NCBI GenBank assembly: GCA_943789475.1
Contig: CALSUG010000008.1
Span: 183,053-247,052 of the forward strand
Direction of reading: 5' to 3'
From: an uncultured Alphaproteobacteria bacterium
GTDB taxonomy: Bacteria > Pseudomonadota > Alphaproteobacteria > Micavibrionales > UBA1664
Length of the DNA: 64,000 bases
Numbering within the stretch: position 1 is the first letter of the stretch; each line of letters starts with the position of its first letter. A model generated the notes under the pieces. It did no database searches and was not told the origin of the DNA. It saw only the letters and a list, made by a program, of their open reading frames with translations. The position numbers and the translations under genes are program-made. Below are positions 3,642 to 25,689 of the stretch, piece by piece.

Positions 3642-4076
3642 TTATTCCTCAAATGGCTTATCGCCTAAATGTGTGAAGAAGCGAAGAAGGTAGCCATCAG
3701 GATCTTGAATCAAAAACTGGCGGTTGCCACCCATCGTATCGCCCGTGCGATACCATTTTTCTTCTATCTCCATAAATAACGGGTAACCCATATCTGCTAA
3801 TTTTTGATACAGGCTATCAACATCAGCGATTTCAATTTGAAAATTAATGCCACGTCCGTATGGTTGTTCTAATTCAGCCGTTTTCCAACTGTGTCCCGTA
3901 CCATCAGGTTGCTCAACCATGATTTGCGCGCCTTCTTTATCCAGATAAGCAAAACCTTCCTCTGGTCGGCCATATTTCATTTCAAACCCAAGGGTTTGAA
4001 TGTAAAATTCCAATGTTTTTTCAATATCCGTTACATAAAATTCAGGAACTAATTTCGACCATATCTCATCTGTCAT
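3642..4076 (-). CDS. VOC family protein (glyoxalase / bleomycin-resistance fold)
   Basis: 144 aa; FYxxxLGFE N-terminal motif and a duplicated beta-alpha-beta3 pattern typical of the glyoxalase/bleomycin-resistance family. Confidence 0.6.
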   Translation of the reverse strand: MTDEIWSKLVPEFYVTDIEKTLEFYIQTLGFEMKYGRPEEGFAYLDKEGAQIMVEQPDGTGHSWKTAELEQPYGRGINFQIEIADVDSLYQKLADMGYPLFMEIEEKWYRTGDTMGGNRQFLIQDPDGYLLRFFTHLGDKPFEE

Positions 4077-4152
4077 GATAAATCCTTACTTAAAAAGTAA
4101 ATAATAATCTTATTTAAATATCAAACTATAAAATTGATTTTTATCTTAATAG

Positions 4153-5394
4153 ATGATATTTATAATTATGGAATTAGAGAAAACAATAAAATATTTAAAA
4201 AATCTTGTGTCTCTGGAGTCGGTTACAAGTAACGATAACGCAAAAATTGTTTCTTATATTGGCTCAATTTTAGAAAGTAACTCTTTCAAAGTTGAGTTAA
4301 TAAAAGCTCCGAATGGTAATAGTAGTATTTATGCAGAAATAGGGCCTTCAGATAAACCACCACTAATTTTTTCAGGTCATTATGATGTTGTGCCAGCAGA
4401 CTCTCAATCTATGCATTCTGGTAGATGGTGTTATACTGAAAATCCTGAAACTTTAGATACCCCAGCAAAAAAATGGACAAATGATCCGCATACTTGTGTC
4501 GAAAAAGACGGAAAAATATATGGTCGTGGAACATGTGATATGTTGGGTGCAATTGCAACCTTATTAAATTTTTCAAGTGAAATAGCAACAAAAAATTTAG
4601 CTCGTAAAGTCGTTTTTATTATTACATGTGATGAAGAAACTGATATGCAATCCATCAAATATATTCTTGCGAAAAAATTTGATTCAAAGTCTGGTACGGC
4701 TTTACCTATAGGGGCCATAATAATGGAACCTACTAATATGCATCCTGTTATTGCTCATAGAGGAGTCGTTGCGGGTAAGATTACTGTTAAAGGTAAATTT
4801 TCTCACGTTTCTAGACCAGACTTAATGATTGATCCTATAGAACCCCTATTAGATATATTGAGTTACTTCAAGCTTCATACTGCAAAATATCTTAATGAAG
4901 AAATGGCTGATGAGGGCTTTATTCCTCAACAATCGCAGATGACCATATATAGCCTTAAAACACACGAAAAAGGAAGAAACACCCCTGAAATTGCAGAGTT
5001 TGGATACGTTTTTCATTATTTACCCGATAATTATCCAAGCGAGTGCTTAGAAAAGCTAGATGAATACGTTCGTTCAAAAAATACAGATATTAAAAATATA
5101 AATGCACAGAGTAGTATTACGCATGAAATCGATTTTAAAATGGATAGCTTTTCCACACCAGATACAAGCACATTTGCAAACAAAGTCGCTTCACATACAA
5201 TCTCTGCTAAATTTAAAAAAGTTGGTTTTTTTACTGAGGCAGGACATTTTCAAAATGTAGGAATTCCTGTTACAATAGTGGGACCAGGATCAATTTTACA
5301 AGCTCATACACCTGATGAGTTCGTAGAAGTTAGCCAATTAGATCAATCTTTGAATTTTTTAAAAAACATATATAAAGGGTTTTTAATAGAATGA
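4153..5394 (+). CDS. M20 family metallohydrolase (ArgE/DapE/ACY1-like)
   Basis: FSGHYDVVPA, GRGTCDMLGA and CDEETD metal-ligand motifs; 413 aa. Confidence 0.7.
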   Translation: MIFIIMELEKTIKYLKNLVSLESVTSNDNAKIVSYIGSILESNSFKVELIKAPNGNSSIYAEIGPSDKPPLIFSGHYDVVPADSQSMHSGRWCYTENPETLDTPAKKWTNDPHTCVEKDGKIYGRGTCDMLGAIATLLNFSSEIATKNLARKVVFIITCDEETDMQSIKYILAKKFDSKSGTALPIGAIIMEPTNMHPVIAHRGVVAGKITVKGKFSHVSRPDLMIDPIEPLLDILSYFKLHTAKYLNEEMADEGFIPQQSQMTIYSLKTHEKGRNTPEIAEFGYVFHYLPDNYPSECLEKLDEYVRSKNTDIKNINAQSSITHEIDFKMDSFSTPDTSTFANKVASHTISAKFKKVGFFTEAGHFQNVGIPVTIVGPGSILQAHTPDEFVEVSQLDQSLNFLKNIYKGFLIE

Positions 5395-6134
5395 ATAATC
5401 AATTAGCTGAGTCGTTAGAAAAGAGAGGATTCTGCCTTTTAGAGAATGCTATTACATTAGAGAAACTCGAACTCATAAGGAGCGAACTCGATGGTATTGA
5501 ATCTGAGGTTATAAGTAATGGTATTGATGAAAAAAATCAAATCATAAAGTTGGATAAAGTCCGTTTTATGATTCACAATTTACAATTTGAAAACTGCCCA
5601 GAAGTACATAATGTCATTATAAATGGTGTTGGCAATAAGGTTTTGAGTTCAATTGTAGAGGATAGCCTGGTCTGTACAGGTGCAACATTTGCTAATTGCA
5701 AACCTGGTTTCCCTGGAATTCCTATGCATACTGATTACGATCCATATGACAAAAATATTTATAGGCCAAGTAACCCCATTGCCATTAGAATTTTATACTA
5801 TTTAGATGATATTGAGCCACAAAAATCACCTTTAAGATTATTACCCTATTCACACACATCTTTGAATAAAAACAGAACTTATAATTTAGAATTTGACGAA
5901 GACTTAGAAGATGAAATTCAGTTTACTTGTAAAGCAGGAACTGCAGTAATGTTTAATACAAAAATGTTCCATGGCGTTAAACCAAATAAAACAAAAATGA
6001 ATAGACGTGTATTAGCGCTAACTTATAGGCCCAGATTTTCAAAACCTTTAAATCACGTGGAAGAATACACAGATATAAAACTATCTACGCTGTCCAATGA
6101 ATTGCGCCCTTATTTTGAAAACATCAATGGCTGA
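5391..6134 (+). CDS. phytanoyl-CoA dioxygenase (PhyH) family Fe(II)/2-oxoglutarate oxygenase
   Basis: HTDYD (HxD) facial-triad motif and distal FHGVKPN histidine. The start overlaps the M20 stop by 4 nt (ATGA). Confidence 0.6.
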   Translation: MNNQLAESLEKRGFCLLENAITLEKLELIRSELDGIESEVISNGIDEKNQIIKLDKVRFMIHNLQFENCPEVHNVIINGVGNKVLSSIVEDSLVCTGATFANCKPGFPGIPMHTDYDPYDKNIYRPSNPIAIRILYYLDDIEPQKSPLRLLPYSHTSLNKNRTYNLEFDEDLEDEIQFTCKAGTAVMFNTKMFHGVKPNKTKMNRRVLALTYRPRFSKPLNHVEEYTDIKLSTLSNELRPYFENING

Positions 6135-6900
6135 AGTAATATTTGGGACGCAAAATATTAATAGTTCTAATATTCGGCTTTGCGAAATAGCTTGGAATAA
6201 AGGTATAAGATCCTATGATACTGCTTTAGCATATAATAATTTAAACCATTTGAATAATTTTTTTAAAAATTTGCAAGATAGGTCTAGCTACCGAATAATA
6301 TCAAAGATAACAAAAGGACATATAGAGTATGAGGGTGTTAGAAAAAGCATATTAAAGATCTTACAAAAGTTAAATAATCAAGACTACATAGATACACTCT
6401 TAATTCATGCACCAAAAGGTGTTGATCACATTAAAGTATTAAATGAATTAGAAGAATTGCGACAAGATGGTTTAATAAAAAAATATGGAGTAAGTAATTA
6501 CACCATAAAACACCTGAGATCATTAAAAAACAGCAACATTAAGTTAGACGTATTACAAAATGAAATACACCCGTTTTTACAAGAGAGTGAGTTAGTAAAC
6601 TATTGTAATAGAGAGAATATAAATGTTATGGCGCATAGCGGGTATGCACATGGTTTAGTATTTAAAAATCCTAGAATTAAGAAAGTTGCTAACCTTTTGA
6701 ACGTTACAATAAGCGAGTTAATTTTAAGTTGGCACCTTTCTAGAAAGATTAGTCCTATATTTTTTTCTTCTGATAGTAATCATATTAAAAATACAGATTA
6801 TTCAAAAATATCAAAAATAAGTCCTCAATTTTTTGAAGACATATCAGGATTAAATACTAATTTAAGAATATGTGATAATCCTGAATGGTCTGAGTTTTAA
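6127..6900 (+). CDS. aldo/keto reductase family oxidoreductase
   Basis: SYDTALAY (Asp/Tyr catalytic), LIHAP and GVSNY motifs. I prefer ATG 6127 to the track start 6097; it overlaps the PhyH stop. Confidence 0.6.
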   Translation: MAEVIFGTQNINSSNIRLCEIAWNKGIRSYDTALAYNNLNHLNNFFKNLQDRSSYRIISKITKGHIEYEGVRKSILKILQKLNNQDYIDTLLIHAPKGVDHIKVLNELEELRQDGLIKKYGVSNYTIKHLRSLKNSNIKLDVLQNEIHPFLQESELVNYCNRENINVMAHSGYAHGLVFKNPRIKKVANLLNVTISELILSWHLSRKISPIFFSSDSNHIKNTDYSKISKISPQFFEDISGLNTNLRICDNPEWSEF

Positions 6901-6907
6901 TGTGTGA

Positions 6908-8191
6908 TTAAGATTCAGGGTGAATAACATCCACACCTAACCAAGGCTGTAAAGGTTTAGGAACTCTAACGCTACCGTCTTCTTGTTGATTTTGCTCTAC
7001 TATTGCCGGCAGCAGTCTGCTGGTGGCCAAACCAGATGCATTTAACGTATGAAGTAACTCTGTCTTCTTTTGCCCTTTTCTTTTAAAGCGGATTTTTGCT
7101 CGTCGAGCTTGATAGTCTTTTGCCCATGAAGCAGATGATACTTCTTTATAGATCCCCATACTTGGTATCCATACTTCTATATCATAAGTTATAGCCATAG
7201 AAGCACTAGAATCCTCTGCAGCTAATAAAGAAGTTCTGTAGTGTAATCCTAGTTCTTCCATTAACCTTTCCCCTTTATGAATTAGCTCTTGAAGGGCTGC
7301 TTCTCCATCTTCGGGTTTTGTAAATTGAAACATTTCAACTTTGTTGAACTGATGCCCGCGAACAGTTCCTCTTTCTTCTGTTCTTCCTCCGCCTTTTTCA
7401 CTCCTATAGCAGGGAGAGTAAGCAAATGATTTTATTGGCAGCATATTTTCATCAATAATTTCATCCCGGTATATATTAAGAATTGCAGTTTCTGATGTTG
7501 GTAATAAGAATCTATTCTGATCCCCATCTGAAGTTTTTAAATGAAACACGTCATCTCTAAACTTAGGAAATTGACCAGCAGATAACCCGCATTCATCGAT
7601 TAGTAAATGTGGAGGCAGTAAAAAAGTATATCCATCCTTATAATGTTCCATACAGAAGTAATTTAATAAAGCCCATTCTAATGCAGCACCCATTCCTTTA
7701 TACAACCAAAAGCCAGAACCACCCAGTTTAACGCCACGTTCATAATCAACTAGATCCAAAGAAGTGCAAAGCTCAACATGATCTTTCATTGTGAAATCGA
7801 ACACTGGTTTTTCGCCAAATTTTTTAACTACTGTATTATTTTCTTTTCCTCCAGCAGGAACAATATCTTCAGGTATATTTGGTAGACTTAGTAATTCCAA
7901 ATCCAATGATTTTTTTATTTTCTCTACTTGTGAAGATAAGTCGATAATATTTTCATTGAGCTTCTTAACTTGCTTTTCCAATATATCAGTATCTTCGTTT
8001 TTAGACTTTAGCTGACCAATTTTTTTAGATATTGAATTACGTTCAGCTTGGTTTTCTTCAAGTTTGAGGCTTATCGATTTCACATCAGCATCTAATTCGA
8101 TAATGTAATCTATATTTAAATCAGATGTTCGCTTTAAAAGGGCTTTTACAACAGCTTCTTTGTTGTCTTTTATGTATTTTATATCCAGCAT
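6908..8191 (-). CDS. serS: seryl-tRNA synthetase, paralog 1 (divergent)
   Basis: 427 aa with an N-terminal coiled-coil tRNA arm. Class II motif 2 is CYRSEKGGGRTEERGTVRGHQFNKVE; motif 3 is HTLNASGLATSRLLPAIVEQNQ. Confidence 0.85.
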   Translation of the reverse strand: MLDIKYIKDNKEAVVKALLKRTSDLNIDYIIELDADVKSISLKLEENQAERNSISKKIGQLKSKNEDTDILEKQVKKLNENIIDLSSQVEKIKKSLDLELLSLPNIPEDIVPAGGKENNTVVKKFGEKPVFDFTMKDHVELCTSLDLVDYERGVKLGGSGFWLYKGMGAALEWALLNYFCMEHYKDGYTFLLPPHLLIDECGLSAGQFPKFRDDVFHLKTSDGDQNRFLLPTSETAILNIYRDEIIDENMLPIKSFAYSPCYRSEKGGGRTEERGTVRGHQFNKVEMFQFTKPEDGEAALQELIHKGERLMEELGLHYRTSLLAAEDSSASMAITYDIEVWIPSMGIYKEVSSASWAKDYQARRAKIRFKRKGQKKTELLHTLNASGLATSRLLPAIVEQNQQEDGSVRVPKPLQPWLGVDVIHPES

Positions 8192-8276
8192 AATTTTTAT
8201 CCATTGATTAATTAATAATTTATAAGAGTATTACCTCAATAAGCTAGGTATAGCAAGATACACAACTGATAGAAAA

Positions 8277-8993
8277 TTAAAGAGTAGATACATAATCCGA
8301 TAATATTTTTACTAGCTCATCATCATCCAGATAATTATGATCTACATCTGGTATATTTTTATTCTTAGTAATCGTTCTTGCCCACCGTCTTGTATCTTTC
8401 GTATGACACATCAAAGTACTTATTTCGCTATCTCCTCCATAAATAATACGATGCATTTGATGAGATAACATGTAGTAGGAATCACCTTTAGAGTGGTATA
8501 ATTTTTCTTTTAAACACACTTCTGACTTACCTATATATTGAACAGAGGCATCACTTTTTTCTGTTTTTCCTATATAAAGATATTCGTCATAAGAGTTACC
8601 ACCTCCAGGTGTCGCGTCTTCCCATATTTCAGTTTCCATTTTTCCAGTTAAAATAGATGAAGCAAAATGCCATCTATGATCGTGTATATTTTCTTCAGCT
8701 TTGCATTCTGGCTTCCAAATATGCAGCCTAAGACGAAAAAGAGAATTATCATCTAATATAATTTTATAAAATCCATTACCATGCAAATAAGACCGTTTAG
8801 CTATCTGGTTTAATAGTATTGGGTCACCTAGTATTTGAAGGATTGCTTTTTTAAAGCCGTTGGTACTGAATACTTTTAATTTCTGAGATAGCTCTTGCAT
8901 AGCCTGCTCAGGATTACTTTTATTACTAACTAAAAGATTTTTAATCTCTGCTAAAAAATTGTTAAAACTCAATGGGCTATCTATTTTATTCAT
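8277..8993 (-). CDS. hypothetical protein, possible cupin-like metalloprotein
   Basis: 238 aa. His-rich stretch LHIWKPECKAEENIHDHRWHFASSILTGKMETEIWE plus a later HQMHRI resemble a cupin metal site. Weak, eye-based call. Confidence 0.3.
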   Translation of the reverse strand: MNKIDSPLSFNNFLAEIKNLLVSNKSNPEQAMQELSQKLKVFSTNGFKKAILQILGDPILLNQIAKRSYLHGNGFYKIILDDNSLFRLRLHIWKPECKAEENIHDHRWHFASSILTGKMETEIWEDATPGGGNSYDEYLYIGKTEKSDASVQYIGKSEVCLKEKLYHSKGDSYYMLSHQMHRIIYGGDSEISTLMCHTKDTRRWARTITKNKNIPDVDHNYLDDDELVKILSDYVSTL

Positions 8994-8999
8994 ATTATT

Positions 9000-10070
9000 T
9001 CACATTACATAATCTTTATTGTTTTTACAATACCATTCTATCATATTGTCATTATTATCAAATAATCCTATTTGACCACCAGAATGAATTAAAATTATTG
9101 TACTATTTTTTCTAATTTTTTCTTTTTCAATTAAATACTTCATACCTATAAAAGTTTTCACCATGTAATTAATATCAAAAATTAATCCGTATTTATTAAT
9201 CGCATATTGCATTGTTTCTAGCTCTTCCTTGGAAGGAGTATCGTAAGCTATACCTAATCCGCAATCATAAAAATTTATACTTTTTTTAAGTTTGCTATCT
9301 AATTTTAGCATTTTATATGTGTCATCTTTTAGTTTGGTGGCTTTACATGATAATTTATCGGCATTCTCCCCTATGCAAATACCATGTACTTCAAGATCGA
9401 AATCCAAAAATTCGGCAGCCATCTGTATTCCAACGGCCGTACCTCCTGAACCAGCGGCGCAAACAACATCATATTTTTTTGAATTGTTATTTTGTAATTG
9501 TGAAATAATTTCGAAACCTAATTCTATACTTCCAAGCATGCCAAGACCAGCAGACCCACCAGATTCTATGATATAAGGACTATGACCGTTATTTTTTTCA
9601 TCATCAAATATTTTTGATAGGTTTTCCGATAGTTTTATCCATGATGAATGTTCGAACCAAGAAATCTTAGGATTATACAAAGTAGTTAGTAAATAATTCC
9701 CTTGAGCCATTTTGGGTTTAGCCTGCTTGTCTCCCCCGTAAATTAAGTGACAATTCAACCCATTTTCACAAGCGACCTTAGCAACCGCCTTACATTGGTT
9801 AGAAGGCAAGCTTCCAACACTAATAAGTGTATCAGATTTCTTTTTTTTAACATCTTGAAGTATATAGTGAAGTTTTCTTAATTTATTCCCACAACCAAAA
9901 TCATCTATTGAATCTTCTCTTTTTATTAAAATTTCACGCCCCAGATTATTAGTCATATTTATATTTTTTTCTAATTTAACAGGGCCTAAAGAAGAGCACA
10001 CCATCTTAGTATCCAAGTTGGTGGTTATTTTTTTTATAGCACTTTCAACACTTTTGATAATAGACCGCAT
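9000..10070 (-). CDS. fold-type-II PLP enzyme, ACC deaminase / D-cysteine desulfhydrase family
   Basis: GCGNKLRKL (PLP-lysine motif of this family), SNQCKAVA and glycine-rich AAGSGGTAVG. Confidence 0.65.
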   Translation of the reverse strand: MRSIIKSVESAIKKITTNLDTKMVCSSLGPVKLEKNINMTNNLGREILIKREDSIDDFGCGNKLRKLHYILQDVKKKKSDTLISVGSLPSNQCKAVAKVACENGLNCHLIYGGDKQAKPKMAQGNYLLTTLYNPKISWFEHSSWIKLSENLSKIFDDEKNNGHSPYIIESGGSAGLGMLGSIELGFEIISQLQNNNSKKYDVVCAAGSGGTAVGIQMAAEFLDFDLEVHGICIGENADKLSCKATKLKDDTYKMLKLDSKLKKSINFYDCGLGIAYDTPSKEELETMQYAINKYGLIFDINYMVKTFIGMKYLIEKEKIRKNSTIILIHSGGQIGLFDNNDNMIEWYCKNNKDYVM

Positions 10071-10858
10071 TACTTTTCTACCACTAATGAATAAAGATAT
10101 GGATAATTATTTGAACTTGAAGAATACAATCCATCTTTCTCCATATCCATGCAATCGGATAATTTATAAGGAGAATATGGGTACTCCTGCATATCAATCA
10201 GTTTAAATCCGCTGGAAATGAGTGCGTTTATCACATCGCTGATGTTATTTTGCCACCTGTATTCAAAGTATTTAATTTTAGCTTCAGAATCAGTATAAGT
10301 ACCTTCAGTCCACTCTGCCAAAGGCTCTCCATTAGAGAAATAATTTTTATGCCCACTGACTTTACCGTTGAGGATGATGTCTAGGAATGGATGGAATTCC
10401 ACTAGGTAGAAACGACCGCCCTTTTTCAAGGAAGAATATATACCATCAGCCCATATTTTAAGGTCATATAACCAGCAAAGAACGCCATATGAACTTAGAA
10501 CTACATCGAAATCATTACTAAAGTATTTTTTAATATTGTGAACATCATCCTCTATAAATTTAACATCAACTCCAATGTCTTTGCTAATTTCTATAGCATT
10601 TTCTATCGCTTTAGAGGATATATCTACACCAGTGCACATTGCTCCCATTCTAGCTAATGTCATTGTATCTAAACCAAAATGGCACTGTAAATGTAGTAGT
10701 GATTTTCCATTTATATCACCCAGTAATTTTAACTCTGGCTGATGTAGAGTGTTTTCTCCATTTTTGAAGTCAGGTACATTGTAGAATTTTGAATCGATAT
10801 GAACTTCGGTACGAACATTCCATCCAGATTTGTTTTTTTCTATATAATCTTTTTTCAT
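10070..10858 (-). CDS. class I SAM-dependent methyltransferase
   Basis: LLHLQCHFGLDTMTLARMGAMCTGVDIS (motif I region). The stop overlaps the next gene's start by 1 nt. Confidence 0.7.
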   Translation of the reverse strand: MKKDYIEKNKSGWNVRTEVHIDSKFYNVPDFKNGENTLHQPELKLLGDINGKSLLHLQCHFGLDTMTLARMGAMCTGVDISSKAIENAIEISKDIGVDVKFIEDDVHNIKKYFSNDFDVVLSSYGVLCWLYDLKIWADGIYSSLKKGGRFYLVEFHPFLDIILNGKVSGHKNYFSNGEPLAEWTEGTYTDSEAKIKYFEYRWQNNISDVINALISSGFKLIDMQEYPYSPYKLSDCMDMEKDGLYSSSSNNYPYLYSLVVEK

Positions 10859-10862
10859 TACT

Positions 10863-12569
10863 TTATTTCTTTGTAGGGTGTTTGACTAAAAAATGTCCCA
10901 TGACTAAATAATCTACACCCGAAGTGTAAAAAGAAGCCATTGCATCATAAGGACTCTCATCTATTGGTTTGCCTCTGACATTCAATGATGTATTAATCAA
11001 AATAGGCAACCCGCTTAAATTGTAAAACTCATTCAGCAACTCATGTAAAAATGGGTCATGCTCTTTATAAACAACTTGAGACCTTGCTGTACCATCCGCA
11101 TGTGTAATAGCTGGAATTAATTCGCGCTTATCTTTCTTTACGTTTACAGTAAACATCATAAAGCGATTTTTTTCTCCATCAAAATACTCATGGAAATATT
11201 CGTCTAACACTAATGGAGCAAGAGGTCGAAACTGTTCCCTAACTTTAAGTTCATTTAATTTATATTTGGTTCTTTCTGACTGTGGAGACGCTAATAAACT
11301 TCTATTACCCAAAGCGCGTGGTCCGAATTCCATTCTTCCTCTATAATGAGCCACAATATTTTCTTTATTTAACAATTCAGCAATCCGCTGTGCAGGGTTC
11401 AGCATTACTTCAAAATCAACACCGCTTTGTTCAAGGTATTTCTTTATTTCATCATTAGTATATTCTGTCCCAAGAAGCATGCCATCGTATTTGATTTTAT
11501 CTACTGCATCGTGATTATTGTTACTGTAATAAGATAGAGCAGCAGAGCCAATCGCTGTACCTGCATCATGAGATGCAGGTTGCACAAAAACACTATTAAC
11601 TTCGGGTAACTTTGCAATTTGTGAGTTAACTAAGATGTTTAAAAAGGTACCTCCTGCTAAACATACATCAGACACTTTTGTAGTTTTTATTGCGCTTTTA
11701 ATAAGGTTAATCACAGCTTCTTCAAGTCTTACTTGGGTTGACTTAGCTATATCTTTATGGATTTGCTGAAGTGGCTCTTCTTTTTTACGTTTTTCACCTA
11801 AAATGGTAGTTAATGATTTGAGTAGCTTTATATTCACTTCATAAGATCCATCCTCATTGATTTGCAGTAGTTGCTTCATTTCATCTTGGAATTTATTTTC
11901 TCCATATGCCGCAAGGCCCATTACCTTATATTCGTCTGAAAATGGTTCGAATCCTAAATGTTCTGTAATAAAAGAATAGAAGAACCCTAATGAATGGGGA
12001 AGATTTATCTGTCTAAGTTTTTTTAGATTTTTTTCTCGTCCTAAATAAACAGATGAGCATGCTCTTTCACCACTTCCATCAATTACGAAAACTAGCGCTT
12101 CCTTTGCCTCTGAAAAATAGAAAGCTGAAGCAGCATGTGAAATATGATGGTCCCATTCTTTGATTTTTATTGTACTGAAATCACTGGGTTCCATAAGATC
12201 TCTATATCTTCTAGGAATTTCATATCCATTTTTAAGCGCTGGTAGAAAATTACAAGCCGTGTTAAATGCTTGAAGTTCTTCTTGCAATGAAGACAGACGT
12301 TCGCCCGTAAAGCAGCCAATAAGGCTTTTTAAATGATTCCATTTATTATAGGACAATGCTATTTCATCAATATCAGAAGATTTTAAGTTGCACGATTTTA
12401 AAGCTGAATAAATCGCATCGATAGGTAAATAAGTTTTATAAGGAGTATAGCTTTTGCCATGCTTTATACGTGTCAATCTTTCATCTTCCATAGCAAATAT
12501 TAACTCGCCGTCTTTTATTATTGCTACCGCTGGATGCTCAAAATAGTAATTTATTCCTAATATTATCAT
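10863..12569 (-). CDS. carbamoyltransferase (NodU/CmcH/TobZ family)
   Basis: 568 aa. N-terminus ILGINYYFEHPAVAIIKDGELIFAMEDERLTRIKH and the overall length are typical of this family. Confidence 0.8.
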   Translation of the reverse strand: MIILGINYYFEHPAVAIIKDGELIFAMEDERLTRIKHGKSYTPYKTYLPIDAIYSALKSCNLKSSDIDEIALSYNKWNHLKSLIGCFTGERLSSLQEELQAFNTACNFLPALKNGYEIPRRYRDLMEPSDFSTIKIKEWDHHISHAASAFYFSEAKEALVFVIDGSGERACSSVYLGREKNLKKLRQINLPHSLGFFYSFITEHLGFEPFSDEYKVMGLAAYGENKFQDEMKQLLQINEDGSYEVNIKLLKSLTTILGEKRKKEEPLQQIHKDIAKSTQVRLEEAVINLIKSAIKTTKVSDVCLAGGTFLNILVNSQIAKLPEVNSVFVQPASHDAGTAIGSAALSYYSNNNHDAVDKIKYDGMLLGTEYTNDEIKKYLEQSGVDFEVMLNPAQRIAELLNKENIVAHYRGRMEFGPRALGNRSLLASPQSERTKYKLNELKVREQFRPLAPLVLDEYFHEYFDGEKNRFMMFTVNVKKDKRELIPAITHADGTARSQVVYKEHDPFLHELLNEFYNLSGLPILINTSLNVRGKPIDESPYDAMASFYTSGVDYLVMGHFLVKHPTKK

Positions 12570-12638
12570 TCTATCTCCTGATTACTTAACTTTAATCAAT
12601 ACTCGCATATATTGCTGAGAAAAAATACTCAAAAAAGC

Positions 12639-12668
12639 TTGACATTTTTTCCATAATAGTGTTATTTT
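12639..12668 (+). promoter_or_regulatory. putative sigma70-type promoter of the serS2 operon
   Basis: TTGACA at 12639-12644. An 18-nt spacer ends in TG (extended -10), then TATTTT at 12663-12668. RBS GGAG at 12693-12696. Confidence 0.3.
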
Positions 12669-12704
12669 ATTTCAAGAAAAAATAAACGCTACGGAGATAA
12701 CCCG

Positions 12705-14030
12705 ATGATAGATATAAAAAAATTAGCAAACAACGCCAACCTAATCCAAGAAATGCGTGAAAATATTGCCGCACGAGGTGTTGAGGCCGATGTAGATGAA
12801 ACTCTTTTAGCCTATGAAAAAATGCTAACCTCTCAAAGAGAGCTTGAAGTTATGCGAGCTGCATCCAATCAAAATGCCAAGAACACAAAAAATGTCAGTC
12901 AAGAAAATCGTCCGCAAATAATATCAAAAGGTAAGGAATTAAAAAGAAAAATTGCGAAACTAGTTGAAGAAGAAACTACTTTAAAAGATATCTTTGAGAA
13001 AGCAGCTTTGAAGCTGCCAAATTGGATGTCACCTGATGTTTCAATTGGAAACGATGATGAAGATAATAAAATTATTCGTCGCTTTTCGTCGCCAACAAAA
13101 TTTGATTTCGAACCTAAAGATCACCTGGAACTGGGAAAGTCATTAGATTTATTAGATTTTGAATCTGGCGCAAAGGTTGCAGGCTCTAAATTTTATTTCC
13201 TTAAAAATGAAGCTGTGCTATTACAACATGCAATAAAATCATACGCTTTCCGCAAGGCAATTGAAAAAGGGTTTACACCTCTACACACACCAGATGTAGC
13301 TAGAAATTCTGTAATGGAGGGGATCGGCTTTGCTCCAAGAGGAAATGAAAGCAACACATATACATTAGAAGGTGAAGATCTGAGTCTGGTAGCAACTTCT
13401 GAAATTGCAGTAGGAGGAATGCATTCAAATGATGTTTTTGACATTGAAGATTTACCATTACTATACGTGGCAGAAAGCCATTGTTTTAGACGTGAAGCAG
13501 GAACTGCAGGCAGAGCAAGTAAAGGATTATATAGAGTTCATCAATTTGAAAAAATAGAATTATTTGCATTTTCAACACCAAGCCAAAGCGAAAAAGTATT
13601 GGAAAACATACGAGCTTTAGAGGAAGAAATATATCAAGATTTGGGATTACCTTATCAACTAGTTTTAAACTGCTCTGGAGACTTAGGTAATCCAGCTTAT
13701 AAGAAATACGATATAGAAGCGTGGATGCCTGGAAAAGATGAAAACGGAGGATACGGAGAGGTTACATCAGCAAGTAACTGCTTAAGTTATCAATCCCGCC
13801 GTTTAAATGTACGCTATAAAAATCCCGAGACTGGTCGTAATGAACACGTACATACACTTAATGGAACTGCTGTAGCTTTAAGTAGAACGCCTGTAGCAAT
13901 AATGGAAAACTATCAAACTAAGGAAGGTGGAATTAGAATCCCTGAAGTCTTGGTTCCTTACACTGGATTTGAAGAGATCAAACCTCGTCAATCGAAAAAA
14001 TACAAGCTAAAACTATCTTCACCTAGGTAA
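12705..14030 (+). CDS. serS: seryl-tRNA synthetase, paralog 2 (more canonical)
   Basis: 441 aa with an N-terminal coiled-coil arm. Motif 2 is CFRREAGTAGRASKGLYRVHQFEKIE; motif 3 is HTLNGTAVALSRTPVAIMENYQ. Confidence 0.9.
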   Translation: MIDIKKLANNANLIQEMRENIAARGVEADVDETLLAYEKMLTSQRELEVMRAASNQNAKNTKNVSQENRPQIISKGKELKRKIAKLVEEETTLKDIFEKAALKLPNWMSPDVSIGNDDEDNKIIRRFSSPTKFDFEPKDHLELGKSLDLLDFESGAKVAGSKFYFLKNEAVLLQHAIKSYAFRKAIEKGFTPLHTPDVARNSVMEGIGFAPRGNESNTYTLEGEDLSLVATSEIAVGGMHSNDVFDIEDLPLLYVAESHCFRREAGTAGRASKGLYRVHQFEKIELFAFSTPSQSEKVLENIRALEEEIYQDLGLPYQLVLNCSGDLGNPAYKKYDIEAWMPGKDENGGYGEVTSASNCLSYQSRRLNVRYKNPETGRNEHVHTLNGTAVALSRTPVAIMENYQTKEGGIRIPEVLVPYTGFEEIKPRQSKKYKLKLSSPR

Positions 14031-14080
14031 ATTACATGTTAAGATATAAATATTAGTAATATTATTAAGGAATGTAAATA

Positions 14081-15376
14081 TTGTTGGATATTGATCATAT
14101 TTTAGACAAAGTAATAGAACATCACAATTCTTCTGTTAACCAAATAAACTTAACACCAAGTGAAAATACGCTTTCACCTTTATCGAGATTGCCATTCGTT
14201 TTAGATGCATATTCAAGGTATTTCCTTGATGATTTAAGGTTATTCGGTGACTGGTCCTTCCCCAGTGGAAAAGATCTTGGAGATATTGAGCAAAATATGC
14301 TGCAACCAACTCTAAAAGATCTTGGAAAAGCAAAATATATTAACGTTAGACCAATTTCTGGCATAAATTGCATGACTATTGCCTTAGCTGCGTTTTCAGA
14401 ACCGGGTGATACCCTGTATTCAATTCCAATGTCTGCTGGCGGCCATCCTAGCACGATTAATGTTGCTGAGGGCTTAGGATTAAAAGTAAAAGATGTCCCA
14501 TTTTTTAACGCATTTGAAATTGATTTAACTAAATTAGAGAATAAGCTAGTTGAAGATAACCCGTCAATTCTATACATTGATCAAGCAACCTTTCTTTATC
14601 CCATAGATCCAAGACCAATAAGAAATATTATAGATAGACATGAATTAAAAACAATAATTCACTATGATTCCAGCCATTTGAATGGCTTTATTTTTGGAGG
14701 AGCTACCGAAAACCCTTTAGAAGCTGGAGCGCATTGCTATGGTGGGTCTACGCATAAAACTTTCCCAGGTCCTCATAAAGGCTTTTTAGCAACAAATGAT
14801 CAAGAGTTGAATGCACTAATTTTAGAGAAATCAGATCACTTTGTAAGTCACCATCATATGGCTAGCGTTGTATCGCTTGCTATATCATTATTAGAGTTTA
14901 AGAATAACGACGGTACAAAATACATAGAACAAGTTGTTGCAAACACAAAATATTTTTGCGAGCTCATAGACAAAAATAAGAAATATGTGATTTTAAATCA
15001 TAATAATAAAAATACAGAAACGCACCAGATCTGGCTTACTACTAAAAATCCAAAAAAAGCTCGAGAGGTGGAAAGAAAACTTAGATACGTAGGCATAATA
15101 TTGAATTGTTTCCCAGGTCTCCCTGGTTTTAATCATACATCTTACAGGTTGTCTGTTGCAGAATTTACTAGATTTGGCGCGAATAAAGACTCCATTAAAG
15201 AACTAGTGAAATGCTTTGATATGATTCTTGATACTGACGTCAATTTAGATTTAGTCAAAAATAAAGTATCTAAATTAAGAAACGAAAATAGTAAAATTCA
15301 ATATTGCCATAATTATAATGAATCAAAAAAAACCAGTTTAAAAGAACTGATAAATAATATATTTGATAATGAATGA
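14081..15376 (+). CDS. serine hydroxymethyltransferase-like PLP enzyme (divergent)
   Basis: LTPSENTLSP (cf. SHMT SEN motif) and GGSTHKTFPGPHKG (cf. SHMT PLP-lysine motif THKTLRGPRGG). TTG start. Confidence 0.65.
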   Translation: MLDIDHILDKVIEHHNSSVNQINLTPSENTLSPLSRLPFVLDAYSRYFLDDLRLFGDWSFPSGKDLGDIEQNMLQPTLKDLGKAKYINVRPISGINCMTIALAAFSEPGDTLYSIPMSAGGHPSTINVAEGLGLKVKDVPFFNAFEIDLTKLENKLVEDNPSILYIDQATFLYPIDPRPIRNIIDRHELKTIIHYDSSHLNGFIFGGATENPLEAGAHCYGGSTHKTFPGPHKGFLATNDQELNALILEKSDHFVSHHHMASVVSLAISLLEFKNNDGTKYIEQVVANTKYFCELIDKNKKYVILNHNNKNTETHQIWLTTKNPKKAREVERKLRYVGIILNCFPGLPGFNHTSYRLSVAEFTRFGANKDSIKELVKCFDMILDTDVNLDLVKNKVSKLRNENSKIQYCHNYNESKKTSLKELINNIFDNE

Positions 15377-16689
15377 TGTCTTCGCCGTTAATGCCAAGTA
15401 CCCTAAATGAATTATTGAAACATGATTTTATTTTAGCAAAAAAGATATACCCTCATCTGAACTCTCCCCTTAAAAAATATTTAAAGTATATATTTCCTAA
15501 ACCTCTAAAATCCAAAAATAGTAGCTTTGACCTATTAGTTAGAGCAATGGAACAATTCTCACAGCGTCATCATTTGGAGCCAGTGAGTAATTTTTCAAAA
15601 TTATTAATAAATACACCATGTATACAACAGGCAGATCACTCTAATCTATTATTAGACAGGGAAACATTTTATAATAATTTGCTACATGCTGAGAGTGCTA
15701 GATTAAACAATTGTGATTATATTTTCACATCTCAATGCTCAATTGTTAGCTGTATAACTCGCCGTTCACCAATATTTGGACCAACTATACTAAATTATAA
15801 TGATGATGTTTACAAAGTTTTTGATGACTCCAATAGAACTCTAAAAGATTCTAACTTTTGTACTCTCAGTAGCTCAAGAAAATTCGAAATATCTTCTCTA
15901 TATAATCCAGAGAAATCTAAGGATTTTTTTTTACAACATATTGATGGTCTTTCCTTTGCAACAGCAGAACAAGCCTACCTATACGCTAATGAACATATTT
16001 GGAATAATATTAAATATACCAAGGGAATTAAAAGAATATCCTTTGATGAGACACTAATTTCAGAGCTCGCGATATTACATTTACGAGATATTCATAGCCC
16101 ATTTTATAAGCTTATAATGGACAAAGATATTCGTGATAATTTTATTAAGACTAAAAGATCTTATGTAGCATCAAAAAGCAATAAATCGATTAATTCCTCG
16201 TATCCAGATTTTTTTTGGCTTAGAAAAAAAAATAAATTACGCGCTTTAAAGTTGGACTTAAACACGTCTAAATTTAAGATTTTCCAAACTAATGAAGATG
16301 GCATAAGTATTAATTCCGTTGATGATATAATTAAACTTTTAGAAGAAAAAGTAATTTATCTTGATCGAATGATGGCGTACTTTCTACGATGTCTTTTACC
16401 AAATATTGTTGCCATTGGAGGAACAAGCCAGCAAGATTATTTAAACTCATATCAAGAAATCTTTCAGCTCGCTAATGAAAAGACTAGTTTTTTGAATGAT
16501 AATTACAAAAAAAGTATTCAAAATAAGGATCTTAGTCAATTTGGCGGCGCCCCATTAATCGAGGGAAAAGATATTTATTTAAATAACATTCAATTAGTAG
16601 ATTTTGAGCAGCAAATTAAAGAAAGCCTAAATAAAAACCTATTGGAAACAATAGGGTCCTTTGATTGCGCGAACTACTTATTATCATGA
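15373..16689 (+). CDS. hypothetical protein (438 aa), no recognisable domain
   Basis: Long ORF; ATGA overlap with the SHMT-like stop (translational coupling). Confidence 0.5.
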   Translation: MMSSPLMPSTLNELLKHDFILAKKIYPHLNSPLKKYLKYIFPKPLKSKNSSFDLLVRAMEQFSQRHHLEPVSNFSKLLINTPCIQQADHSNLLLDRETFYNNLLHAESARLNNCDYIFTSQCSIVSCITRRSPIFGPTILNYNDDVYKVFDDSNRTLKDSNFCTLSSSRKFEISSLYNPEKSKDFFLQHIDGLSFATAEQAYLYANEHIWNNIKYTKGIKRISFDETLISELAILHLRDIHSPFYKLIMDKDIRDNFIKTKRSYVASKSNKSINSSYPDFFWLRKKNKLRALKLDLNTSKFKIFQTNEDGISINSVDDIIKLLEEKVIYLDRMMAYFLRCLLPNIVAIGGTSQQDYLNSYQEIFQLANEKTSFLNDNYKKSIQNKDLSQFGGAPLIEGKDIYLNNIQLVDFEQQIKESLNKNLLETIGSFDCANYLLS

Positions 16690-17433: not shown

Positions 17434-18456
17434 TTAGTTAATATTGTAAGCCAATAAAGCCATACGATTATCCGAGTCATCATAGCGTGATACTCTTGTT
17501 AGTCCCACCATCTCGCAAAGTACATCCATTAGATCAACGGAAATTTTGTATGATTGGTCAACAACGAGGCGTTCTCCTTCTTTAATGGTGAAATGTTCAC
17601 CGTCAATAAAGAATGACATCGGTTTTTCAGCCACCAGAACATGGCCTGTAAGTAAAAGATCGTGACCTTTGTATGTCATCGGCTTTGTGTCTGTTTCGTA
17701 ATGCCAAGCATAAGGATCGAAGTCTCCTTCAATAGCAATATCTCTTGTTATGCGGTGCATTAAATTAGCGATTTGTTCGGCATGAAGTGGGTGGTTGTAA
17801 GATTGAATCACAGATTTTGGATCTGTATTGGTGTCAATCGTCATCACCAAATTTCCGCCTTTTCCGATAGCGCGCTTGAATGATTTGAGCAGATCAAGCA
17901 TACCTTCGGGAAACTCTTCAAAATTTGTTGAGGCTCCAAAAAATAACCCAAGAGCTTTACCATGTTTTGCGATTGGCGACATGGCCTCAAAGTCTTCATT
18001 GATGCCTAGAAATTTTAATTTTTTATCAAAATTTGAGCCGATAATTTTTTGCGCTGTCTTTAAAAAAGCATCATTAATATCTACTGCTACATACTGACTG
18101 ATGTTTTTAAAGGCTTTAAGAAGGGGGACTGTTTGTTTTGTGATGACCTCTCCACCACCGACACCAAAATCAATAATGGTTTTTGTGTCTGCAAAGACAT
18201 GTGCAAGTTTGTTAATATTTTGCAATACCAAGTCGCGTTGATTTCTTGTGACATAGTAATCACGATGCAGGGCTGTAAACAAATCCCACAATATACCGCC
18301 ACATACCGCGTCATCATCAGAAAGGCGTTCGCTATAACTCCATTTTCCCATACGTCCCGTTTGTCCGCTTCCATTATTTTGGCGTAGAAACATCTTGGCG
18401 TCTTCTTTCAAAGACTCCTGCGTTGTATCTAGGTGCGATATTTTAGTTGTCTGCAT
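17434..18456 (-). CDS. EgtD-like (Methyltransf_33) SAM-dependent methyltransferase
   Basis: YYVTRNQRDLV and IDFGVGGGE motifs. Start taken at ATG 18454-18456 (MQTTKISHL..). The 77 upstream codons of the track ORF overlap the XRE-domain gene. Confidence 0.6.
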   Translation of the reverse strand: MQTTKISHLDTTQESLKEDAKMFLRQNNGSGQTGRMGKWSYSERLSDDDAVCGGILWDLFTALHRDYYVTRNQRDLVLQNINKLAHVFADTKTIIDFGVGGGEVITKQTVPLLKAFKNISQYVAVDINDAFLKTAQKIIGSNFDKKLKFLGINEDFEAMSPIAKHGKALGLFFGASTNFEEFPEGMLDLLKSFKRAIGKGGNLVMTIDTNTDPKSVIQSYNHPLHAEQIANLMHRITRDIAIEGDFDPYAWHYETDTKPMTYKGHDLLLTGHVLVAEKPMSFFIDGEHFTIKEGERLVVDQSYKISVDLMDVLCEMVGLTRVSRYDDSDNRMALLAYNIN

Positions 18457-19096
18457 GTGTTTTTCCTTTGATAAATGGAATATCGGCATTCTCCCATGCA
18501 ATCTCAAACTGTTTTCTTTGAGCTTCAGCAATGGGTTTGATGTCTTGTACATATACAGAAACATCATCTTCAAATAATATTGTGGCGAGCTTATTGCCAT
18601 ACACATAGAAAGGAACGGCAGAAAAATGTTTTTCTTCAACCCAGCGATAATCAGCATATTCACCACCTGAGAAGTTGGTATCTCCATGTTTAATTAAAAT
18701 TTTGAAATCTAGATTTGGGACCGATGCCATTTTTTCAGCTTGTTCTTTGTCGGCATCACCAAGCCAATATTCAAATTTAGATTCGTCTACACCACTTACA
18801 CATATAGTGCCGCCTTTACCTTTAACCGTATTGTAAACATCCCAGATAAATTCAAGGAAACCTTCACGTCCAAGATATTCTTTTGTTGTACGGGTGATTT
18901 TTTCAATTTTGTTTCCGGAGACTTCATATCCATTTTCAGCAAAAAATTTGATAATATCTCGAATATTAGAAGCCTTTGTATTGCCGCCTTCTTCGATACG
19001 CTTGATCGTCATTGGGTTTACACCAATCACATCACCAAGGTCTTTTTGAGACATGTTAAGTATATTTCTTGCACCGCGTATATGATTAGATATCAT
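18443..19096 (-). CDS. XRE-type HTH domain protein with an uncharacterised C-terminal domain
   Basis: N-terminal MSQKDLGDVIGVNPMTIKRIEEG HTH; 217 aa. It overlaps the downstream methyltransferase start by 14 nt. Confidence 0.65.
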   Translation of the reverse strand: MISNHIRGARNILNMSQKDLGDVIGVNPMTIKRIEEGGNTKASNIRDIIKFFAENGYEVSGNKIEKITRTTKEYLGREGFLEFIWDVYNTVKGKGGTICVSGVDESKFEYWLGDADKEQAEKMASVPNLDFKILIKHGDTNFSGGEYADYRWVEEKHFSAVPFYVYGNKLATILFEDDVSVYVQDIKPIAEAQRKQFEIAWENADIPFIKGKTHADN

Positions 19097-20621: not shown

Positions 20622-21926
20622 TTAAAACGCGAATGTTTGAATGGCTTCCAATTTTTCTTCTAATGATGGTTCGCCATATTCCATTTCTTTAAAGTCATGC
20701 CCCATCAGCACGCATTGAATGCGTCGATTAATCTTATTTTGGCGCAAGAAATCTTGGAAGCTGTGCCGTATCGAATAGAGCGGCGTTTGTCCTTCTTCCA
20801 ACGGGATATTGTTATCCTTATAATATTTGCACAAGCATGACGATAGACTTGAAGATTTACGGTAGTATTTTTTGAAGCCGTGGGGGAAGTCTTTCATGAT
20901 TTCGAGAGAAAGACCTGTTAGCGGAATAATGCGATTACTTTGTTTGGATTTGCGTTCTTCATCCATTTTCTCACGCACAATAACGTGGGGTATATCGTGA
21001 TTCAAAACAATGTCATCTTTATCAAACCCACAAAATTCTGAAGGACGCATGCTAGTATTAAGCATGACAAGCTATGCAGCGCGTGCTTCTTTGTTTAGTT
21101 TTGAAAAGATTTGATCATTCATGATAACGCGCTGAATATACTCTTGCGAGAACGATTTTCTGCGGCGTGTGTCATCTGTAATCCTTAAATCCGCGAATAA
21201 CTTACTTGTATCTATATCAAGCTGTAACTCTCTATTAATTTTTGAAATAACGGCTTTTAATTTTTCAAATTTACGATTAACCGTATGCGCTCTAATCTCG
21301 CCTTTTTCATATCGAGAAATCATTTTATTTTTAAGTTGCATGAGATCGTTCCGATTAATGTCTTGGAGGGCTTTATCACCTGAAATCACAAGCATTTCAT
21401 CAACCACCTGTTCCTTTTCACGAATCCATCGTTTTTTCTGAACATCACTCTTTCTGGCGAGATCTGCGCGACTCACTTCTACCAGCTTTTGAATAGAGCC
21501 CGAAAGCATGATTTGCGGTTCAGAAACACCACCAAGTAAAGCGTCTACCTTTATATTTGATTGTTTTATATCTTGATTGGATATGAGATTTAAGCGCTGG
21601 ATGATTTCTTCAGGCTTTTCTTGGGCTAACACATCTACCGTCACATATTGCAAGCCATAGAGTTGAGCTGTTTTAACAGCCTTGCGATATTTGACATCTT
21701 GTCCATTATCGCCATTAACGGTTAAATCGTCCCATAGGCTTTCCATCTTACTATTCAATTGTATAGATTTTGTTTTTGCAATTTTACGATCGCGTGTTTT
21801 TAAAGATACCTTAATAAGCTTTTTACTTGTCATTTCGACGATGTGTGCGGGCACTCTTCGTCTGTAATAATAAATGCCGTTAGGCGCTAAAAATAGATAG
21901 TCTGTGTGTACCATTTTGTGTCCCAA
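20622..21926 (-). pseudogene. tyrosine recombinase / phage-type integrase with an in-frame TAG
   Basis: Track ORFs 21072..21926 and 20622..21065 are in the same frame, separated by TAG at 21072-21074 (..NKEARAA*LVMLNTSMRPSEF..). The C-terminal part has the catalytic-type motifs MRPSE, RHSFQDF and LMGH..EY. The gene lies adjacent to a tRNA gene. Confidence 0.75.
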
Positions 21927-22038: not shown

Positions 22039-22112
22039 TGGAGCGGGTGACGGGGATCGAACCCGCACAACCAGCTTGGAAGGCTGGGGCTCTACCATTG
22101 AGCTACACCCGC
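22039..22112 (-). tRNA. tRNA-Gly (anticodon UCC), CCA encoded
   Basis: Minus strand: GCGGGTG TA GCTC AATGGTA GAGC C CCAGC CTTCCAA GCTGG TTGT GCGGG TTCGATC CCCGT CACCCGC T CCA. Full cloverleaf; anticodon loop CT-TCC-AA. Confidence 0.9.
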
Positions 22113-22161
22113 GAAAGGCTATGAAACATGTTTTATAAGGATTTTCTTATAAGCGCAAGTG

Positions 22162-22197
22162 CAAAAATAAAGCCCTCTTAAAAAAAGAGGGCTTTTA
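22162..22197 (-). terminator. intrinsic terminator
   Basis: 8-bp stem AGCCCTCT/AGAGGGCT (22171-22178 pairs with 22086+100=22186-22193) flanked by A/T runs, downstream of the 22204..23064 gene. Confidence 0.6.
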
Positions 22198-22203
22198 AAA
22201 TGA

Positions 22204-23064: not shown

Positions 23065-23091
23065 GTGGGTTCGCTTCTTTTGTTGTTATGT

Positions 23092-25654: not shown

Positions 25655-25689
25655 GAGGCTTCTTTTTTCGTCCTTTTCATGTGTGTTGA

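Follow-up and report, generated by a model that had tools for sequence, protein, structure and literature searches.

Why does an alphaproteobacterium with a small genome carry, directly behind a gene for seryl-tRNA synthetase (SerRS), a second gene whose product resembles serine hydroxymethyltransferase (SHMT, GlyA)? The question is raised by a gene at positions 14081..15376 of a 64,000-nucleotide stretch of DNA from an uncultured member of the Micavibrionales (UBA1664; assembly GCA_943789475.1, contig CALSUG010000008.1, positions 183,053 to 247,052), which is called the window throughout. An initial annotation had proposed that the gene encodes an SHMT-like enzyme recruited as a transaldolase. 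This proposal is supported by membership in the clade of AbmH, loss of the folate site, abm-type neighbors, and a separate glyA in the genome. Judged from sequence, the probability is about 0.8 that the gene encodes an AbmH-type, pyridoxal 5'-phosphate (PLP)-dependent L-threonine:nucleoside-5'-aldehyde transaldolase and not GlyA. The assignment draws on homology, synteny, a residue pattern, the separate glyA, the island in which the gene lies, and RNA-library sequences nearly identical to it.

The open reading frame (ORF) encodes 431 amino acids on the forward strand and has TTG as its first start codon. Because an AAGGAA ribosome-binding site lies 8 nt 5' of this TTG, no in-frame methionine follows before residue 74, and alignments with homologues begin at residues 1-7, the TTG start is credible, and the ORF first proposed was accepted as real. 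The SHMT PLP-lysine motif was located at residues 221-234 (GGSTHKTFPGPHKG). The SerRS gene stands directly upstream as described (453 bits with TIGR00414); the gap to the TTG, given as 51 nt, measures 50 nt (14031-14080). At its 3' end the gene shares the sequence ATGA with the next ORF, whose ATG overlaps the stop codon. The Lys/Asn-rich C terminus is present, but it is not a private tail: the region is common to the family, and the unaligned part is limited to roughly the last 20 residues. The alignment with the SHMT of Methanocaldococcus jannaschii extends to residue 412, and the family-wide C-terminal region includes a nearly invariant Cys409. An A8 run is found near the 3' end of the gene, at 15325-15332. 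In a near-copy of the protein, P0002 (99% identical, 425 amino acids), the C terminus differs in a way consistent with one extra A in this run, which would abolish the stop/start overlap; strain variation or a sequencing error in the homopolymer could account for the difference.

The genome (1.97 Mb, 9 contigs, 97% complete) was checked for a canonical glyA, and one was found on contig C5. In the same genome scan it scored 557 bits with the Pfam SHMT family PF00464, as against 45.9 bits for the window gene. Its nearest proteins are from alphaproteobacterial metagenome-assembled genomes (MAGs; 83%) and Micavibrio (74%). The divergence from GlyA that had been judged by eye was borne out by numbers. 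Identity of the window protein to GlyA is 25.6% for the enzyme of the same genome (over 355 amino acids) and 25.1% for that of Escherichia coli. With PF00464 it scored 47.4 bits, above the loose cut-off of 27 of that model. With the NCBIfam SHMT model PRK00011 it reached 157.8 bits, below the cut-off of 335, and so falls outside canonical SHMT. It also falls outside the fluorothreonine transaldolase family TIGR04506 (155.2 bits, cut-off 650): positions 3-417 of the 609-position profile are matched, and the window protein, which stops at residue 431, does not have the C-terminal aldolase/epimerase-like domain.

Residues were compared in a MAFFT alignment of 87 sequences that included E. coli GlyA, using the site lists for E. 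coli SHMT in PMC7916883. The PLP site is kept at nine positions: Ser35, Gly98, His126, Asp200, His203, His228, Lys229, Arg363, and Tyr55 of the E. coli enzyme correspond to Ser27, Gly94, His122, Asp196, His199, His225, Lys226, Arg356, and Tyr47, and Thr226 is conservatively replaced by Ser223. Changes were found at Ser99 (Ile95), Ser175 (Ala169), Arg235 (His232), Tyr65 (Pro61), and Gly263 (His258). Lys226, Asp196, His122, Ser93-Gly94, and Arg356 are each invariant in 22/22 abm-type rows; among the 59 other rows of transaldolase-like proteins, 58-59 have them. The PLP lysine and core needed by an L-threonine transaldolase are present. The tetrahydrofolate-binding residues, which had been singled out for checking, are not retained. 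The E. coli H4PteGlu-site residues Leu121, Gly125, Leu127, Asn347, Glu57', and Tyr64' (PMC7916883) align with Met117, Gly121, Pro123, Pro345, Phe55, and Phe60, so that only Gly125 is identical (one of six). The 352-360 loop is five residues shorter in the window protein. The AbmH homologue of Streptomyces globisporus displays a folate-site pattern like that of the window protein.

A signature for L-threonine transaldolases has been described in the numbering of ObiH: a loop with Phe58, Trp68, and Phe70, and His324/Gln325 bonded to His207/Arg366 (PMC8072733). In a HMMER alignment with ObiH (7K34), Trp68, Phe70, His324, Gln325, His207, and Arg366 correspond to Trp58, Phe60, His315, Gln316, His199, and Arg356. 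Four of the five signature residues and both active-site partners are therefore kept, the equivalent of Phe58 being ambiguous.

These data bear on the possibility that the gene encodes a second, divergent but genuine folate- or pterin-dependent SHMT supplying glycine, serine, or one-carbon units to the cluster. Such an enzyme would have the SHMT fold and conserved PLP core seen here, M. jannaschii SHMT is the best match among PDB sequences (122.6 bits), PRK00011 is nominally the top NCBIfam match, and extra serine could serve a serine-consuming pathway. Yet the score stays far under the PRK00011 cut-off, five of the six folate-site residues are replaced and the 352-360 loop is shortened, a canonical glyA is already present, and the clade is shared with a homologue of AbmH, an enzyme characterized as a transaldolase. 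We regard a genuine SHMT as extremely improbable.

A protein search returned 263 relatives at E <= 0.001. The closest are P0002, followed by metagenome proteins at 59 and 53% identity; among named organisms, Rickettsiella grylli (51%), Photorhabdus tasmaniensis (46%), and S. globisporus (44%) are represented. Where relatives carry names, these are serine or glycine hydroxymethyltransferase or generic ones such as "hypothetical protein"; the hydroxymethyltransferase label, used for clade proteins in public sources, is misleading for the window gene. A scan of one genome per species yielded 77 loci. Identity to the protein at the AbmH position of the albomycin-type locus of S. globisporus (locus L014) is 43.9%, the AbmH identity of that protein following from gene content and not from a named record. 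For AbmH itself, threo-selective PLP transaldolase activity is reported, by which the thioheptose core is built (PMC9032320, PMC9092360, PMC8323819). In a quick IQ-TREE tree of 87 rows with two GlyA rows as outgroup (a 330-residue length filter removed no row), the window protein falls into a clade of 22 rows (Shimodaira-Hasegawa-like approximate likelihood ratio test, 99) together with all 10 rows that have abm synteny, including the two Streptomyces loci L013 and L014. The abm-synteny label requires one change on this tree, a value as low as which was reached in 0/500 shuffles. The phylogenetic check that had been called for thus groups the protein with the AbmH homologue and leaves GlyA outside.

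Synteny was assessed by tblastn of window proteins against the loci. Homologues of AbmD, AbmE, AbmF, and AbmI and SerRS genes all lie inside 6908-16689 of the window, and the eight core ORFs of the cluster are intact and of full length relative to homologues. Homologues of AbmE, AbmI, AbmD, and AbmF plus a SerRS gene accompany the SHMT-like gene in a Verrucomicrobia MAG (L003), Wenjunlia vitaminophila (L006), Photorhabdus tasmaniensis (L010), Kofleriaceae (L012), Streptomyces (L013 and L014), and a Pseudomonas MAG (L016). Locus L008 has the full set minus the AbmF-like gene and L060 the full set minus SerRS. In addition, L014 (S. globisporus JCM 4378) contains two radical S-adenosylmethionine (SAM) genes, a dNK kinase homologue, an ornithine monooxygenase, a GNAT protein, and ABC transporters, in agreement with the published abm gene content (PMC9032320, PMC9092360, PMC8323819). 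The neighbors are homologous to the albomycin enzymes AbmE, AbmI, AbmD, AbmF, and AbmK, which fits a cluster-specific role outside one-carbon metabolism, as had been suggested from the adjacent SerRS. The features are compiled in Table 1.

Table 1. Features of the cluster and its surroundings (positions refer to the window; percentages are amino acid identities)
Feature	Coordinates	Strand	Basis
Putative AbmH-like PLP-dependent L-threonine transaldolase (SHMT fold)	14081..15376	+	ORF, motif, identity, tree, signature residues
Cluster SerRS B, 50 nt upstream of transaldolase gene	12705..14030	+	TIGR00414, 453 bits
AbmF-like ligase, 438 aa	15373..16689	+	tblastn to AbmF position of L014, 27%, 206 bits, residues 8-435/438
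AbmE-like carbamoyltransferase	10863..12569	-	Carbam_trans_N and Carbam_trans_C; 48%, 549 bits to AbmE position of L014
AbmI-like SAM methyltransferase	10070..10858	-	Methyltransf_11 and related; 49%, 255 bits to AbmI position of L014
AbmD-like PLP enzyme (PALP fold, D-cysteine desulfhydrase/ACC deaminase family)	9000..10070	-	PF00291, TIGR01275
Cysteine-dioxygenase-like cupin, 238 aa	8277..8993	-	invariant residues, model, Foldseek
Cluster SerRS A, AbmK-type	6908..8191	-	TIGR00414, 394 bits
Aldo/keto reductase	6097..6900	+	PF00248; homologues in L010 (36%) and L016 (34%)
PhyH-type Fe(II)/2-oxoglutarate dioxygenase	5391..6134	+	PF05721; homologues in L010 (40%) and L016 (34%)
M20 (ArgE/DapE-like) deacylase or peptidase	4153..5394	+	PF01546; all NCBIfam matches below cut-offs
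Best sigma-70-like promoter match	12639..12668	+	TTGACA-18-TATTTT, 10/12 with TG; divergent intergenic region upstream of SerRS B
tRNA-Gly(TCC), right island edge	22039..22112	-	ARAGORN

The window contains two SerRS genes, one of which had been mentioned initially, and the genome three in all, the housekeeping copy lying on C5 (480 bits). SerRS B is 35% identical to the housekeeping enzyme and 53, 42, and 38% identical to the cluster SerRS of L003, L016, and L010. SerRS A is 37% identical to the housekeeping enzyme, 51% identical to the AbmK homologue of L014, and 57-63% identical to the cluster SerRS of L006, L008, L009, and L012 (actinobacterial and Kofleriaceae). The AbmD-like enzyme is 32% identical to the protein at the AbmD position of L014 (197 bits). 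For the AbmF-like protein, Pfam, NCBIfam, and PDB sequence searches gave no match. Its predicted structure (predicted local distance difference test (pLDDT) score of 71) has BshC (4wbd, E 1.6e-3) as top fold match, followed by class I LysRS and TyrRS, and these model-based matches fit the published synthetase-like description of AbmF.

Another alternative is an L-threonine transaldolase or aldolase that, like ObiH, acts on a non-nucleoside aldehyde, releases a free beta-hydroxy amino acid, and has nothing to do with SerRS-inhibitor chemistry. The signature residues in common with ObiH would suit this, and the clade members L005 and L007 (Legionellales MAGs) have no AbmE, AbmI, AbmD, or AbmF homologues in the fetched DNA; the clade is therefore not tied to a single pathway. 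The window gene, however, stands between SerRS and the AbmF-like gene, with which it has the stop/start overlap, the abm-type gene set is common to ten loci, and even in L005 and L007 nucleotide-kinase fusions beside the gene point to nucleoside chemistry. A non-nucleoside acceptor appears very unlikely.

Co-transcription with SerRS had also been claimed. It is no more than plausible: no terminator-like site was found in the 50-nt gap between SerRS B and the transaldolase gene, and single assembled contigs from RNA libraries bridge 13905-14138, including the whole gap, and 15141-15427, the second junction. Four metatranscriptome libraries, all from one study, contained contigs that match portions of each of the three genes at 99% identity or more. 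The promoter match listed in Table 1 is weak evidence because such sites occur at chance level (22 found, 21.4 expected). Position 16613 is joined directly to 16661 in a single RNA-library contig (run X4), which thereby lacks 47 nt from the end of the AbmF-like gene; a terminator-like hairpin was called at 16638-16655 on the minus strand. The gap may reflect a strain deletion or an assembly artifact.

The sequence context places the cluster on a horizontally acquired, low-GC island next to tRNA-Gly. GC content is 0.31-0.35 over 4001-16000 and 0.37-0.43 from 20001 on. An integrase fragment and a DUF6538 protein (20622-21926) adjoin the tRNA gene, and the right flank, 22113-25700, is matched, mostly in part, in 6/6 genomes of the same genus. 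The transaldolase gene was not found at E <= 1e-30 in 40 related genomes. No second copy of the tRNA-Gly 3' end that could mark an attachment (att) site was seen in a repeat search of 1-22300, and a genome-wide search with a 25-nt tRNA-Gly pattern, in which as many as 3 mismatches were allowed, recovered nothing beyond the tRNA. For lack of such a copy the left edge is undefined; it is probably just upstream of the window, near DUF6362 and HTH_36 genes. Segments of 1387-2560 recur in the genome at 73-90% identity (C8:40436-41387, C3:264874-265202, and two places on C2) and are probably mobile-element remnants at the left side of the island.

The island setting invites the view that the small genome retains the horizontally acquired cluster as a relic, silent or decaying, and that the enzyme is without current role. 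Integrase fragments, repeated sequence at the left end, the variant P0002 with its changed C terminus, and the lack of any exporter or carrier gene seen would agree with this view. It is countered by the intact state of all eight core ORFs and by the near-identical contigs in four RNA libraries, and we consider a relic unlikely.

Further genes flank the cluster or the island. On the left side of the cluster are an HAD hydrolase and a protein with glyoxalase/bleomycin-resistance fold (3009-4076, minus strand), on the right side an EgtD-like methyltransferase (17434-18687, minus strand); none of the three has a homologue in the other abm-type loci. HAD hydrolases have been proposed as possible immunity genes in ctj-type clusters (PMC8323819). 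The M20 protein likewise has no homologue in other loci, and whether it belongs to the cluster is uncertain. The PhyH dioxygenase and the aldo/keto reductase are common to the window, Photorhabdus, and Pseudomonas; against PDB sequences the PhyH protein gave only weak matches to fungal dioxygenases (E ~0.005). Upstream of the window (C8:165053-183052) lie dnaA, fpg, and genes for a TraG/TraD-type coupling protein and a DotM C-terminal-domain protein, which suggests that a Dot/Icm-type secretion system and the chromosomal origin region are close to the island. At 36469-39453, the minus strand encodes a protein of 994 residues in which 22 stretches of RTX calcium-binding repeats were recognized (HemolysinCabind, 412 bits); a match to the serralysin C terminus is weak. 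The gene lies between an acyltransferase-domain gene and relA/spoT, and a resistance-nodulation-division efflux operon follows further downstream, past rpoZ.

Taken as an AbmH-type transaldolase, the enzyme would act as follows. By analogy with AbmH, LipK, and ObiH, Lys226 would hold PLP, and L-threonine would undergo retro-aldol cleavage to acetaldehyde and a glycyl-quinonoid. The latter would add to the 5'-aldehyde of a cytosine nucleoside, forming the C5'-C6' bond of a 6'-amino-heptofuranuronic acid nucleoside, and folate would take no part. The AbmD-like PLP enzyme would then epimerize C6'. According to the literature, AbmF adds serine, using seryl-adenylate supplied by AbmK (PMC9032320, PMC9092360, PMC8323819); correspondingly, the AbmF-like ligase would add serine from seryl-adenylate made by a cluster SerRS. 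The AbmE-like enzyme would carbamoylate and the AbmI-like enzyme methylate the cytosine. The product would be a seryl-adenylate mimic like SB-217452 that inhibits SerRS, and the two extra SerRS copies would both supply activated serine and protect the producer. The cluster thus probably makes an albomycin-related inhibitor of SerRS.

Several observations weigh against this assignment. The chemistry, the acceptor, and the product are inferred. The best PDB sequence match is the archaeal SHMT 4bhd and not ObiH (89.8 bits), and the His-Gln signature pair is present in M. jannaschii SHMT as well. The alignment of the Tyr55-Tyr65 loop is uncertain because MAFFT and HMMER place different residues at the glutamate (Phe55 at E. 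coli Glu57 and Asp50 at the archaeal Glu, respectively), a Glu at this position being absent from the window protein in both alignments. The tree was built by a quick method without characterized LipK, CapH, fluorothreonine transaldolase, or ObiH. The cover by RNA libraries is only a hint because the contigs are strandless and DNA carry-over was uncontrolled, without a silent control stretch. Finally, with S. globisporus queries, neither AbmM and AbmG, which make the 4'-thio-5'-aldehyde substrate, nor the epimerase AbmJ were found in the 97%-complete genome; radical SAM matches numbered seven in the genome and zero in the window; and family scans of window ORFs revealed no siderophore, carrier, or exporter gene in the cluster, which leaves uptake and export unexplained.

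The missing genes show that the pathway is not identical to that of albomycin. In a 2025 mBio paper, AbmM is described as swapping sulfur for oxygen and AbmG as carrying out a phosphorylation-dehydration step in thiofuranose formation. The ligase AbmC had no match in the window, and the ornithine monooxygenase, GNAT, and nonribosomal peptide synthetase families were not represented among the window ORFs scanned, AbmA, AbmB, and AbmQ not having been searched genome-wide. Neither the AbmM, AbmG, and AbmJ set nor the siderophore genes AbmA, AbmB, and AbmQ with the ligase AbmC, both of which belong to an albomycin cluster proper, were thus recovered.

Instead, the cluster encodes a cupin, for which Pfam gave no match and a PDB sequence search only a chance-level one. 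Glu101, His104, His106, Trp108, His181, and Arg182 are invariant in seven homologues. The predicted structure (pLDDT 87) matched cysteine, 3-mercaptopropionate, and cysteamine dioxygenases at the top of a Foldseek search (E 1e-8 to 1e-6), and the nearest atlas cluster is named "Cysteine dioxygenase" (score 0.98). The cupin is encoded in the window, L003, L010, and L016. A census was taken over 11 distinct abm-type loci (the window, L003, which is the same contig as L090, L006, L008, L010, L012, L013, L014, L016, L060, and L091), with flanks limited to 10 kb or the contig ends: seven have the cupin, four AbmG and/or AbmM, and none both.

Because AbmM, AbmG, and AbmJ are lacking and the cysteine-dioxygenase-like cupin is present instead, the product may not be a thiosugar. 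Tentatively, we consider it possible, if somewhat doubtful, that the cluster and its Gram-negative relatives make no thionucleoside and that the cupin replaces the radical SAM and kinase route to the nucleoside 5'-aldehyde. The cupin would then be an oxygen-dependent replacement step, which the PhyH dioxygenase and the reductase may assist in three loci. In that case a ~2-Mb bacterium with Dot/Icm-type secretion genes would produce a SerRS inhibitor of seryl-nucleoside type that has an oxygen ring or differs in some other way. The absence of AbmM, AbmG, and AbmJ and the presence of the cupin, in the cluster and its Gram-negative relatives, is the point that may be new, and how the aldehyde acceptor is synthesized without AbmM and AbmG is the more interesting question raised by the cluster.

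The cupin was also considered as a dedicated partner of the transaldolase. As a general rule this was rejected: in metagenomes, 78/80 cupin loci had no SHMT-like gene in the fetched DNA, and one of the remaining two was the L003 contig (many contigs were short). Relatives of the cupin usually lie beside a thymidylate-kinase- or dNK-like kinase and a protein with a GreA/GreB C-terminal domain (metagenome loci L092, L099, L100, L108, L127, L143, and L148, with the cupin at ~10001-10650 in most). The kinase matches the PADLOC model "VakA"; PADLOC had no model for the cupin. These genes occur inside type III CRISPR-Cas loci (Cas1, Cas2, Cas6, Card1, Cas_NE0113, RAMP) or beside a CARF-AAA-HTH regulator of RtcR type, and L143 additionally has a reverse transcriptase fused to a conflict-type histidine kinase. 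The cupin-kinase-GreA genes may form a defense-linked nucleotide-modifying module. Among the titles listed in a literature search, none matched such a module in CRISPR contexts, which is not evidence that it is unpublished. Since the family is found elsewhere beside kinases resembling viperin-associated ones and in type III CRISPR and CARF-regulator neighborhoods, a general nucleotide-modifying role is possible, and the cupin could have been recruited for both defense and antibiotic synthesis. In the two Legionellales loci (L005:1198-6634; L007:3283-6008 and 12386-14953), the cupin precedes a heme-oxygenase-like iron enzyme (PF14518), the SHMT-like transaldolase, and a large fusion of guanylate kinase, APH/choline kinase, and NDK, which in L007 follows ~6 kb downstream after two large genes; an unrelated SAM methyltransferase lies 1.3 kb upstream of the cupin in L007. 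Neither AbmD, AbmE, or AbmF homologues nor SerRS were found there in the fetched DNA, and the loci look like a different nucleoside pathway on the same cupin and transaldolase gene pair.

No compound of the same class other than albomycin is known according to PMC8323819, so a variant whose cluster lacks the genes for sulfur insertion would count as a new analogue from nature and might represent a new biosynthetic route. In the window, a complete-looking cluster for what would be an albomycin-warhead-like SerRS inhibitor is found outside the actinomycetes, on an apparent antibiotic island acquired horizontally by a small genome together with two target copies of resistant type. Threonine transaldolases are, moreover, sought for the synthesis of beta-hydroxy amino acids (PMC8072733).

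Compared with GlyA/SHMT (E. coli 1DFO, M. jannaschii 4BHD), the window protein has the fold, the PLP-binding core, and the carboxylate-binding Arg in common; it differs in its identity of ~25%, its lost folate site, its score below the family cut-off, and the separate true GlyA of its genome. The pathways of LipK and CapH yield uridine-based MraY inhibitors and not SerRS inhibitors. With these two L-Thr:uridine-5'-aldehyde transaldolases the reaction type and the fold are in common (PMC8072733). ObiH, the L-threonine transaldolase of obafluorin synthesis, corresponds in six active-site residues but accepts an aryl-acetaldehyde, and the match to it is weaker than that to the archaeal SHMT. AbmH is likewise a PLP enzyme of SHMT fold; the window protein belongs to its clade and shares with the Streptomyces abm cluster the AbmE-, AbmI-, AbmD-, AbmF-, and AbmK-type neighbors and the pattern at the former folate site. 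The window host, in contrast, is a small-genome proteobacterium in which AbmM, AbmG, AbmJ, and the siderophore genes AbmA, AbmB, and AbmC were not found within the searches described; without AbmM, AbmG, and AbmJ, the acceptor may not be a 4'-thio aldehyde.

Proteobacterial abm-like clusters are already known in silico, since a search with AbmF by Travin et al. in 2021 led to a "second group" of such clusters without siderophore genes, a SerRS gene being close by in all AbmF hits (PMC8323819). Trinickia caryophylli is the only member of this group named in the text (PMC8323819); Trinickia, Photorhabdus, and Pseudomonas relatives were found by search in the present analysis. We found no paper on Gram-negative abm-like clusters beyond PMC8323819, and no product characterized in the literature examined. 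That report predates knowledge of how AbmM contributes to sulfur insertion; in it, the products are termed putative seryl-thiofuranosides, and the cupin is not mentioned (PMC8323819). The window cluster has the same AbmE-, AbmI-, AbmD-, AbmH-, and AbmF-like set near SerRS and likewise no siderophore genes (PMC8323819). It differs from the "second group" in its two cluster SerRS genes and in the lineage of its host.

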